Below, one piece after another: positions 9,001 through 12,000 of a DNA stretch of 64,000 nucleotides. The DNA comes from Escherichia coli (lineage in GTDB: Bacteria; Pseudomonadota; Gammaproteobacteria; Enterobacterales; Enterobacteriaceae), in assembly GCF_017348835.2 (NCBI RefSeq), contig NZ_CP071375.1, one strand, 5' to 3'. Each line of letters opens with the position of its first letter. The stretch's first letter is position 1. A program made the position numbers.

Positions 9001-12000
9001 ACCTGATTGGCAGAATAGTTGTTTGGTTTTGAGTATATAGTCAGCGTTTTTTGTTCAGTAATTGCCCCCTCAAAAAATAATAAAATAAGGTGATTATTTT
9101 TGTTTATTATTTAGTTTTTTTTGTGTGTTATTTTATTGTTTTTGCGTGGTTTGTTTTTTATTGTTATTTCATTAAGGGAAGGTAAATTCAGGATGGCAGT
9201 CTGTAGATAATCGGAGGTCACTTATGCTACATGATCACGTGGCAGAATGTCTGGAGAAAAAAGGACTGTACCGGAGAGCAGCTGAACGATGGGCAAAAGT
9301 GATGGTACAGCTAAGTGATGACCAGAAAAGAAAAGTGGCGGCACAGAAACGAGCAGAGTGTTTGCGTAAGGCGCGCCGGACTCCGGTTTCACCGGTGAAC
9401 CTGACCGAAATAAAACAAGCGGTCAACAGACTACATTCTGAGTTGGGAATGGGATTTGAAGAGCGGCGGGTATTCCGACGATATAAAGGGACAGGAGAAC
9501 AGAATACGTCCGGAAACGCGCGGTCAAAAAAATGCTAAAAAATATCTGAGAGAGTTATTGCCTGTTACCATAAGAAAAAGCGACTTTAGTGGTCGCTTTT
9601 TGTGTCATATATAAGTCGTTTAAGTAAACCTGTCTGAACAGGTGCTCTGGTCGTGTTTGTCTTTGTTGGGTACAAATTGAGAATATTTTTCATTAATTAA
9701 TCTTCTTCTGCAGGCTTCAATAACCCACGCTGAAAAATTACCTGAACCTTTCAGGTCAAGAGCGATGTTAATTTGTTCAATTATCTGGTTTGGAAATCGG
9801 ATGTTGCGGGTTGTTGTTCTGCGGGTTCTGTTCTTTGATGACATAATGTTGCCCCGTATTCAGTGTTGCTGATTTGTATTATCTGAAGTTGCTTTTACGC
9901 TAATTTGATGCAGATCAATTAATACGATACCTGCGTAATAATTGATTATTTCTCGTGGTTTGATGGCGTACACACATGTCGTGATAAACCTCATGTAGAT
10001 GATAATTATTATCATTTTCGTGGGTCCTTTCCGGCGATCCGACAGGTTACGGGGCGGCGACCTCGCGGGTTTTCGCTATTTATGAAAATTTTCCGGGATC
10101 CATGTCCGGTTTCTCTTCAAGTTAACTATATGAAAAATATAAAAACAGGTCTTCTGTGAACCGGACATGAACAAAAAACAGACATGTAAACCGGACATGA
10201 CCGGTTTTGTTGTGATTGTGAGGTGAGAGTTTTTGCGAGGTGAGGAGTGGCTACGCAGACTGAAGTTGCCAGGCATTTAAGTCTGACCGATCGCCAGCTT
10301 CGCAGATTGCAGAAATTGCCGGGTGCCCCGATATCGAATAAGCGAGGGCAACTGGATCTGGATGCCTGGCGCGATTTTTACATATCGTATCTGAGGAGAA
10401 GTAAAAACGATGTGCCTGATGGCGATAGCGAAGACGACTATGAGGAGAAATTGCTTATTGCCAGATGGGAACTGACAGCAGAACAGGCTGTTACACAGCA
10501 GTTAAAAAATGAGGTGTCAAAAGGAAAACTTATTGACACCGGGTTCTGTATTTTTGCCCTCAGTAAGCTGGCAATGGCGTTATCCAGTACGCTTGATTCC
10601 ATCCCTTTATCCATGCAGCGACAGTTTCCTGATTTAACACCGCGCCATCTTGACCATCTGAAAACCCTTATTGCTAAGGGGGCAAATCAGTGTGCGCGGG
10701 CAGGGGATAAATTACCGGATTTACTCGATGAATATATCAGAGCAACAACTGAATAATATGATGGCTGCCGTTTCGGTTGCGCTGCAGCCTCTGGTCAGGG
10801 TTGTACCAATGACGGCAGTTGAATGGGCTGATCAAAATTATTATCTGCCTAAAGAATCTTCATATGGTGAGGGAGAATGGAAAACGCTGCCATTCCAGAT
10901 CGCCATTATGAACTGTATGGGTAACGACCAGGTTCGCACGGTTAACCTGATTAAATCTGCCCGTGTTGGCTATACAAAGATGTTGCTGGGGGTGGTCGGG
11001 TATTTTATTGAGCATAAATCCCGAAACAGTCTGCTTTTTCAGCCCACGGATTCTGCCGCTGAAGATTTTATGAAGTCTCACGTGGAGGCGACGATTCGGA
11101 ACGTGCCATGCCTGAAAGACCTTTCCCCATGGCTGGGTCGTAAACATCGTGACAATACTCTCACGCTGAAACGCTTTTCATCGGGCGTCGGTTTCTGGTG
11201 CCTGGGCGGCGCTGCCGCCAAAAACTACCGTGAAAAATCCGTGGACGTGGTCTGCTATGACGAACTTTCCTCGTTCGAGCCGGATGTCGAAAAAGAGGGC
11301 TCGCCAACCCTGCTGGGGGATAAGCGTATTGAGGGGTCGGTGTGGCCAAAATCCATTCGCGGCTCGACGCCTAAAATCAAAGGCACCTGCCAGATCGAAA
11401 AAGCCGCTAACGAGTCGGCGCATTTTATGCGTTTTTATGTGCCCTGCCCGCACTGTGGGGAGGCGCAGTATCTGAAATTTGGCGATGAGTCCACGCCTTT
11501 TGGGCTTAAATGGGAGAAGGACAGCCCCGAAAGTGTTTTCTACCTCTGTGAACATCATGGCTGCGTGATCCATCAGTCTGAACTGGACCAGAGCAACGGG
11601 CGGTGGATCTGTGAAAACACGGGCATGTGGACCCGTGACGGTCTGACGTTTTTCAGCGCCCGGGGTGATGAAATTCCGCCGCCGCGCTCCATCACGTTCC
11701 ATATCTGGACGGCGTACAGTCCGTTTACCACCTGGGTACAGATAGTCTATGACTGGCTGGATGCACTGAAAGATCCCAACGGCCTGAAAACCTTTGTGAA
11801 CACCACGCTGGGCGAGACCTGGGAAGAAGCCGTGGGCGAAAAACTCGATCACCAGGTACTGATGGATAAGGTCGTGCATTACACGGCGGCGGTACCTGCC
11901 CGGGTGGTTTATCTGACGGCGGGCATTGACTCGCAGCGAAACCGTTTTGAGATGTATGTCTGGGGATGGGCACCGGGAGAGGAAGCTTTTCTGGTGGATA

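Follow-up and report, generated by a model that had tools for sequence, protein, structure and literature searches.

A stretch of 64,000 nucleotides from the Escherichia coli contig NZ_CP071375.1 (RefSeq assembly GCF_017348835.2; here called the window, whose positions are used throughout) is chromosomal DNA carrying a lambdoid prophage, and the cohesive-end (cos) site of this prophage raises a question of packaging specificity. Its cleavage site is that of phage lambda, while the adjoining region contains repeats of a different sequence. Which protein reads these repeats, and do they represent a specificity of their own? Only three specificities, those of lambda, 21 and N15, are documented in lambda-like phages, and the authors who documented them remarked on this lack of diversity (PMC4669245). 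The comparisons below make it quite likely that a lambda-like prophage has its cos site here, arranged as cosQ-cosN-I2-R3-I1-R2-R1-terS-terL, in which the cutting and termination parts are those of lambda and three copies of CATGTCCGGTT in cosB would give the specificity. The prediction that these copies are the binding sites of the phage's own small terminase subunit (TerS) is well supported by comparison, because four independent lines of evidence point to it: the position and spacing of the repeats, their conservation relative to the spacers, their covariation with the class of the TerS N-terminal head, and the covariation of one repeat base with one residue of that head.

Alignment to the ends of the lambda genome identified 61 bp of lambda-identical sequence at positions 10036-10096. 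With cos bp 1 set at position 10052, bp 1-45 (10052-10096) reproduce the left end of lambda exactly and diverge completely from bp 46, while 10036-10051 reproduce the right end exactly. A further ~150 bp upstream of 10036 align to lambda with scattered mismatches and a single 7-bp insertion. The cohesive-end sequence GGGCGGCGACCT has a single exact match in the 64-kb window, and the distance from cosQ to the predicted nick (10022-10028 to 10052) is 30 bp, the same as in lambda. CosQ is the packaging termination signal (PMC4669245), and the I2 region of lambda (bp 18-50) is needed in cis, replacement of bp 30-35 being lethal (PMC4856287). A preliminary description of this DNA, made from the sequence alone, had placed the lambda identity at cosN and ~35 flanking bases, a correct statement that slightly underestimates its extent. 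The cos-type packaging proposed in the same description finds support in the lambda-identical cosQ, cosN and I2, followed by terS, by a gpA-family terL and by head genes in the lambda order; a cos-type mechanism using the lambda cosN is predicted by every test available here.

Beyond the lambda-identical core, the 11-mer AACCGGACATG occurs without mismatch at only three places of the window, 10101-10111 (-), 10159-10169 (+) and 10189-10199 (+). All three fall within 99 bp, against a chance expectation of ~0.03 exact 11-mer matches on both strands of 64 kb. The three copies, one of them inverted, are thus as previously noted, and comparison with the lambda R sequences (CGTTTCCtTTCT) confirms that they differ from these. 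A fourth copy with one mismatch (10196-10206, on the - strand relative to AACCGGACATG) overlaps the third to form the near-palindrome AAACCGGACATGACCGGTTT. The positions of the lambda and 21 sites were taken from PMC9026076, the annotation of the phage 21 record and printed sequences. By these, the first repeat (cos bp 50-60, forward) coincides with R3 of lambda and 21 (bp 50-65), and the second (bp 108-118) with R2 (~109-124 in lambda, 107-122 in phage 21), which is inverted in all three. The third repeat lies at bp 138-148 and is inverted, while R1 of lambda (151-166) and of 21 (150-166) are both forward, so that the conserved third copy departs from the lambda orientation pattern of R3 forward, R2 inverted and R1 forward. 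Taking the forward partner at 10196-10206 as the true R1 would restore that pattern; this candidate was rejected as the partner is not conserved. For the same reason, and since the partner is missing in two variants (L064 and L082), the inverted third copy is taken as the functional site, and the degenerate forward copy is probably accessory or incidental.

The terS gene begins at cos bp 196, compared with 191 for lambda Nu1 and 189 for phage 21 gp1. Its product matches the Pfam family Phage_Nu1 (PF07471) with 67.9 bits against a gathering threshold of 30, and this match spans only residues 49-150 (profile positions 62-163 of 164), leaving the DNA-binding part of the profile unmatched. Similarly, BLASTP aligns TerS with Nu1 only over residues 73-164 (46% identity) and with 21 gp1 only over the C-terminal part (90-100 residues, 40% identity), and neither BLAST nor Pfam detects any sequence similarity of the head to the Nu1 DNA-binding domain. 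Searches of the PDB by sequence, using the whole TerS and a profile of the head, returned no significant match to Nu1 and only marginal matches to helix-turn-helix (HTH) proteins (sigma region 4, eS10 and RdfS). On its sequence, TerS is a chimera of a winged-HTH head (residues 1 to ~55), here termed class A, and a Nu1-like C-terminal part. The preliminary description had suggested that the repeats may be the sites matching a Nu1 variant of this phage; position, conservation and covariation argue for the repeats as the sites of this TerS, which is not simply a variant of Nu1, its head being of another class. Residues 1-60 of class A were modelled with AlphaFold (mean predicted local distance difference test score 81) as a three-helix winged HTH, with helices at 4-10, 15-22 and 38-54 and a short beta hairpin at ~32-36. 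Its Foldseek neighbours are MerR-like winged-HTH domains at a template modelling score of ~0.6 and include RacA, RdfS, DNA-binding domains of viral terminases, the small chains 7LW0 and 7LWR (both from work on viral DNA-packaging motors), RppC (6HLK) and residues 1-98 of lambda TerS (6HN7). The large subunit (TerL) is 66% identical to lambda gpA over its full length.

By tblastn of 50,697 phage records, full-length relatives of TerS were found only in five PhiR12 phages (99% identity) and, at 24-43% identity, in Pseudomonas LPPA33, Aeromonas phiARM81ld and PhAER-1, E. coli vB_EcoM-705R4 and Vibrio HY01. Alignment of 32 small terminases resolves three N-terminal classes on one homologous C-terminal part: class A (MATQxEVAxHL..., as here), class B (MAVLLNKSDMA..., the N15 type) and class C (the lambda/21 type). 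The occurrence of class B heads on C-terminal parts nearly identical to that of this TerS, as in P0056, indicates that TerS heads have been exchanged by recombination.

The DNA upstream of TerS homologues of 60-80% identity, from Klebsiella, E. coli, Salmonella, Citrobacter, Enterobacter and metagenomes, was compared together with that of class B homologues and further viral contigs. At cos bp 49-63, a (T/G)TCCGGTT-type motif recurs in the class A loci that have an identifiable cosQ or a record beginning with cos, and loci with this motif span E. coli, Klebsiella, Salmonella, Citrobacter, Enterobacter, Aeromonas, Pseudomonas and metagenomes. The exceptions (L122, L123 and L125) have the most divergent N-termini and a different helix. 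Class A sites of complex architecture have an inverted copy at bp 106-119 in all those examined, with intervening sequence that cannot be aligned between genera, and third copies, where present, are inverted (bp 136-147 in Enterobacter, bp 150-161 in Klebsiella). Simple class A sites consist of the tandem TTCCGGTTCCGG at ~bp 52-69 with terS starting at ~bp 78, as in phiARM81ld, 705R4 and many metagenomic contigs; the same tandem lies just upstream of terS in LPPA33, in which cosQ was not found and the coordinates are thus not fixed. Loci with a class B head and nearly the same TerS C-terminus instead have GGTTGTTGT repeats at the R3, R2 and R1 positions (forward, inverted and forward). The class A module occurs behind several types of cosN, namely the lambda type, an N15-like GGGCGGCGTCCG, a Gifsy-1-like GGGCGGCAGCGT and others, and it is therefore inherited with the TerS head rather than with the cutting site. 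Six loci (L093, L090, L101 and L108-L110) have class A and B cosB also behind a very different cosN region at cos bp 1-14, resembling GGGG(A/T)CGGCAGACG; the usual cosQ is present in these, and the cohesive end can be placed only to within 2-3 bp from sequence.

Conservation was assessed at closer range in 80 viral contigs with 99%-identical TerS, which yielded 43 distinct cos-region sequences. Variable columns make up 4 of 33 in the repeats, compared with 44 of 117 in the rest of cosB (Fisher p=0.006). The R3 block CCATGTCCGGTTTCTCT and, within R1, CCGGACAT are invariant in all 43 variants, while two of the 11 columns of R2 vary through rare alleles in four sequences. Variation within cosB is greatest in the spacer immediately ahead of R2 and in the one separating R2 from R1. 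The cosQ heptamer GGGTCCT is retained in 43/43 variants and one of the 12 cosN columns varies. The forward partner at 10196-10206 is mutated in several variants; in L064 and L082 (aligned to 10196-10235) it is replaced while the inverted third copy is kept, and both carry a 26-bp insertion ahead of the terS ribosome-binding site. A further variant, the IMG/VR prophage L016 (aligned to 10161-10190), has a natural 30-bp deletion exactly between the direct copies of AACCGGACATG, by which R2 and R1 are fused. This deletion resembles the unequal crossing-over between repeats that has been proposed in the literature as the route to the simple cosB of N15.

Within class A, the repeat also varies with a single residue of the head. 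Proteins with Arg at position 20 of the helix (RQLRRLQK) are paired with xATGTCCGGTT sites in this prophage, Salmonella P0021, Citrobacter P0034 and Enterobacter P0036 and P0038, while those with Asp, Asn, Thr, Ser, Lys or Gln at this position (more than 15 distinct proteins) have TTTCC or CTTCC sites. Four proteins picked as predictions ahead of reading their DNA all fitted this correspondence. Two distant lineages found later, also with Arg at this position, have TGTC-type tandems, TGTCCGTGTCCGG with RHLRRL in L117 and GTGTCGTGTCA with RQVQRL in L164/L165; in the proteins most closely related to them, Asn, Thr, Ser or Lys is paired with TTCC sites. The residues aligned with position 20 are Asn21 in lambda, which has TTTCC sites, and Arg21 in phage 21, which has TGTCGG sites, and profile comparison of the class A and lambda-type domains sets Arg16-Lys23 opposite Arg17-Glu24 of the Nu1 recognition helix, in the expected register. 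Published genetic work on lambda and 21 points to residues 20 and 24 together with bp 56 and bp 59 (PMC4669245). The parallel between position 20 and these lambda and 21 findings is suggestive, not established.

A putative IHF site, I1 (TTTCATATAGTTA, compared with the consensus WATCAANNNNTTR), lies between R3 and R2. Scanning of the whole window with the IHF consensus gave as many matches as expected by chance, and for I1 only the positional comparison across loci is informative. In nine of ten class A complex cos regions the best IHF-type match is found at cos bp 71-73 on the same strand, with 0-2 mismatches and four of the matches perfect. IHF-type matches are placed at bp 74 in phage 21 (its annotated I1) and phi80, and lambda has a match at 74 with two mismatches. 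Terminator-like hairpin sites number four in 800 bp, against 0.9 expected. One short hairpin of this kind with a T-rich tail is formed by the R1 near-palindrome (10188-10207), and the end of I2 together with the start of R3 (10093-10109, CCGGGATCCATGTCCGG) also scores as such. In lambda itself (L002), I2 contains at bp 37-48 the sequence ATTTTCCGGTTT, which comes close to the class A site of the T subtype (CATTTCCGGTT), sits 12-13 bp upstream of the class A R3 position and may be due to chance; its counterpart in the window (10088-10099) reads ATTTTCCGGGAT.

By analogy with lambda, the TerS heads would bind R3 and R2 on either side of an IHF-type bend in the DNA, with R1 providing an additional TerS contact. 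The C-terminal part of TerS would hold the gpA-type TerL over cosN, where nicks predicted 12 bp apart would generate 5' overhangs of GGGCGGCGACCT; packaging would then run rightwards and stop at the next cosQ/cosN. The terminases of lambda, 21 and N15 would not be expected to use this cosB. The evidence leans, with less assurance than for the identification of the cos site, towards a fourth lambda-like packaging specificity separate from those three, which arose when a DNA-binding head also found in phages of Aeromonas and Pseudomonas was joined by recombination to a terminase and cos core of the lambda type. The sub-specificity for TGTCC versus TTTCC would be determined largely by Arg20 versus Asp or Asn, and, as genomes with the module usually have at least two copies of it, O157:H7 and O145 strains being examples, co-resident prophages would share the specificity and could package each other's DNA.

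Alternatively, R3, alone or together with R2, might be all that functions as a TerS site, and the third copy with its partner might serve as a hairpin in DNA or RNA, for example a weak transcription terminator or attenuator before terS. The terminator-like stem-loop at 10188-10207, the many class A relatives with just two sites or one tandem site and the natural fusion of R2 and R1 by the 30-bp deletion in L016 all fit such a role. It would, however, be difficult to reconcile with a pairing half that is not conserved, and is absent in L064 and L082, while CCGGACAT of R1 is invariant, or with the Enterobacter and Klebsiella sites, where the third copy is inverted without forming a palindrome, and this explanation is considered unlikely. 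Somewhat less likely still is that the repeats are operators of another protein, be it a late-gene regulator, a host factor or an Rpp-like satellite redirector, with TerS reading a different, non-repeated sequence. The cos sites of phage-inducible chromosomal islands (PICIs; PMC6739421, PMC9026076) demonstrate that recognition at the cosB position is not confined to TerS, and a gene for a PerC-family regulator lies just upstream of cos. Yet the repeat tracks the TerS head class and one residue of the predicted recognition helix despite differing genes upstream of cos, and it occupies the R3 and R2 positions exactly. A scan of positions 9600-10400, in addition, found no promoter-like site, on which ground a promoter was also rejected as an alternative role of the region.

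Many E. coli prophages of this kind are defective, and the closest chromosomal match, E. coli PE164, has a frameshifted terL, so the repeats could also be a product of chance or a remnant of recombination in an inactive cos site. This is very improbable and is already contradicted by the comparative data: three exact 11-mers lie within 99 bp where 0.03 are expected window-wide, the repeats are conserved and covary across genera, the terL of the window is intact and the module is present in deposited phage genomes. The identification of the repeats as TerS sites is thus preferred over all three explanations, and several points weigh against it. The covariation of Arg with G represents perhaps three or four independent events, uncorrected for shared ancestry, and the conservation statistic likewise carries shared ancestry, since the 43 variants form a closely related, mosaic set. 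The role of the third site is uncertain because R1 is inverted relative to that of lambda and several relatives are without a third site. The Foldseek matches of the head model are non-significant (E 0.4-2 for a 60-residue domain), and the profile comparison of the class A with the lambda-type domain gives only 13% probability, so that homology is not established. The I1 candidate, at 11/13 consensus positions, is by itself no better than chance, 70% of spacer shuffles scoring equally, and the prophage may be defective in other genes.

The segment comprising cosB and the 5' part of terS was detected in 1166 of the 5426 complete E. coli genomes searched. It occupies 1858 places in these, with a median of two per carrying genome; O157:H7, O145 and CFT073 are among the carriers. 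In the same set the lambda-type segment occurs in 4011 genomes (annotated as nohD among the matches listed), the 21-type segment in 1125 and the N15/Monarch-type segment in 244. The five PhiR12 records are the sole deposited phage genomes with this segment, and the module in PhiR12 records is 96.5% identical. No prior description of this class or of its repeats was found in the open-access literature, most subscription journals lying outside the scope of the search, so that an earlier description is possible. Packaging specificity determines what DNA can be mobilised by a phage, by a neighbouring prophage or by a satellite. Roughly one complete E. coli genome in five has the module, as a rule in two or more copies; Shiga-toxin-producing lineages are included, and the module is common in prophages of pathogenic E. 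coli. If the proposed specificity is true, a cosB shared by co-resident prophages would allow mutual packaging of their DNA and help defective prophages to spread. The link between residue and base constitutes a directly testable recognition rule, and the module may be of use as a starting point for cosmid or packaging systems without cross-reaction with lambda.

Table 1. Features of the cos region and adjacent genes (window positions; strands of the repeats refer to CATGTCCGGTT)
Feature	Position	Strand	Basis or remarks
PerC-family regulator gene	9224..9538		Just upstream of cos
cosQ, packaging termination signal, GGGTCCT	10022..10028	+	Lambda 7-mer at lambda distance; role from PMC4669245
cosN cohesive end GGGCGGCGACCT, predicted 12-nt 5' overhang, CG on each flank	10052..10063	+	Equals lambda bp 1-12
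Spacer between cosN and cosB, corresponding to lambda I2 region, cos bp 13-45	10064..10096	+	Lambda-identical
R3-equivalent, putative TerS site, core CATGTCCGGTT at 10101-10111 (cos bp 50-60), invariant block CCATGTCCGGTTTCTCT	10100..10116	+	Exact copy
I1, putative IHF site TTTCATATAGTTA, cos bp 72-84	10123..10135	-	11/13 matches to consensus WATCAANNNNTTR
R2-equivalent, putative TerS site, inverted relative to R3, cos bp 108-118	10159..10169	-	Exact copy
R1-equivalent, putative TerS site, in R2 orientation, cos bp 138-148	10189..10199	-	Exact copy
Degenerate forward copy CATGaCCGGTT, overlapping R1	10196..10206	+	One mismatch
terS, small terminase, 169 residues, GTG start, GAGG Shine-Dalgarno	10247..10756	+	Open reading frame; RefSeq: terminase small subunit
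terL, gpA-family large terminase, intact, overlapping terS	10728..12656	+	Pfam GpA_ATPase and GpA_nuclease

The genes around the cos site (Table 1) are those of a lambdoid prophage. Upstream are encoded a Q-family antiterminator, three tRNAs, an esterase, a holin, a lysozyme, a lysis protein and the PerC-family regulator, and downstream terS and terL are followed by head and tail genes in the lambda order. The closest chromosomal relative, PE164 (L107), is 99.8% identical to positions 1-24000, with its frameshift in the terL region (10728-12655); as the terL of the window is intact, near-identical prophages differ in a functional packaging enzyme. The tRNA cluster at 3490-4006 comprises genes with a CAT anticodon (Ile in the annotation of the closest genome), Arg-TCG and Arg-TCT, followed by a match to the STnc100 small RNA family (138 bits), and is located between the gene for the Q-family antiterminator and that for the SASA-family esterase. 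A tRNA-Ser (TGA) gene at 34123-34210 (-) may mark the junction between prophage and chromosome. Further to the right, a cspA-type thermoregulator 5' untranslated region at 53030-53452 (+; 159 bits) lies within apparently chromosomal DNA.

Among the systems that have been described, lambda has in common with this locus cosQ, cosN, bp 1-45, the position and relative orientation of R3 and R2, the place of a candidate IHF-like site and the order of the head genes. Its R sequence is CGTTTCCtTTCT in place of CATGTCCGGTT, the core of which lies 2-3 bp nearer to cosN here, where R1 is in addition inverted. The lambda specificity, shared by 434 and phi80 (R type CGTTTCC(t/g)TTCT, Nu1 helix RTIQNWQE), is therefore not matched. 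Phage 21 presents the same situation as this prophage, with the cosQ and cosN of lambda and a different cosB. Its R core (CATGTCGGnCCTT) and the repeat described here both contain CATGTC, shifted by 3 bp, while the remainder of the site is GGnCCTT in 21 and CCGGTT here, and R1 of 21 is forward. An Arg of 21 gp1 aligns with Arg20, both sites reading TGTC, in contrast to lambda with Asn and TTTC; the N-terminal domain of gp1 is, however, lambda-like and unrelated in sequence to the class A head. The specificity of phage 21 (C(A/G)TGTCGGnCCTT at bp 50-65, 107-122 and 150-166; helix RTIERWQS) is thus likewise not matched, and identity with its cosB, as the shared CATGTC might suggest, was rejected on the register, the remainder of the site and the protein domain.

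The PICI cos sites resemble the present one in joining a lambda-like cosQ and cosN to an unrelated cosB, with a winged-HTH protein encoded just downstream (PMC6739421, PMC9026076). They are read by Rpp-TerS heterodimers, and RppC is a structural neighbour of the head modelled here. PICI cosB lacks repeated R sequences and is adjacent to rpp without a terminase, unlike the three repeats, terS-terL and head genes of this prophage. In N15 and Monarch, as here, a distinct head class on the homologous C-terminal part is accompanied by a repeat of its own. Neither their repeat GGTTGTTGT nor their head MAVLLNKSDMA is present at this locus, the loci with that head having those repeats, and R1 of Monarch is forward while the third copy here is inverted. 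N15-type cosB occurs in a complex architecture, with three sites and IHF, and in a simple one with a single site near terS (PMC4669245). Class A splits likewise, in parallel to N15 (simple) and Monarch (complex), the complex form being found in enterobacterial prophages such as this one and the simple tandem in Aeromonas phiARM81ld, 705R4 and metagenomic contigs.

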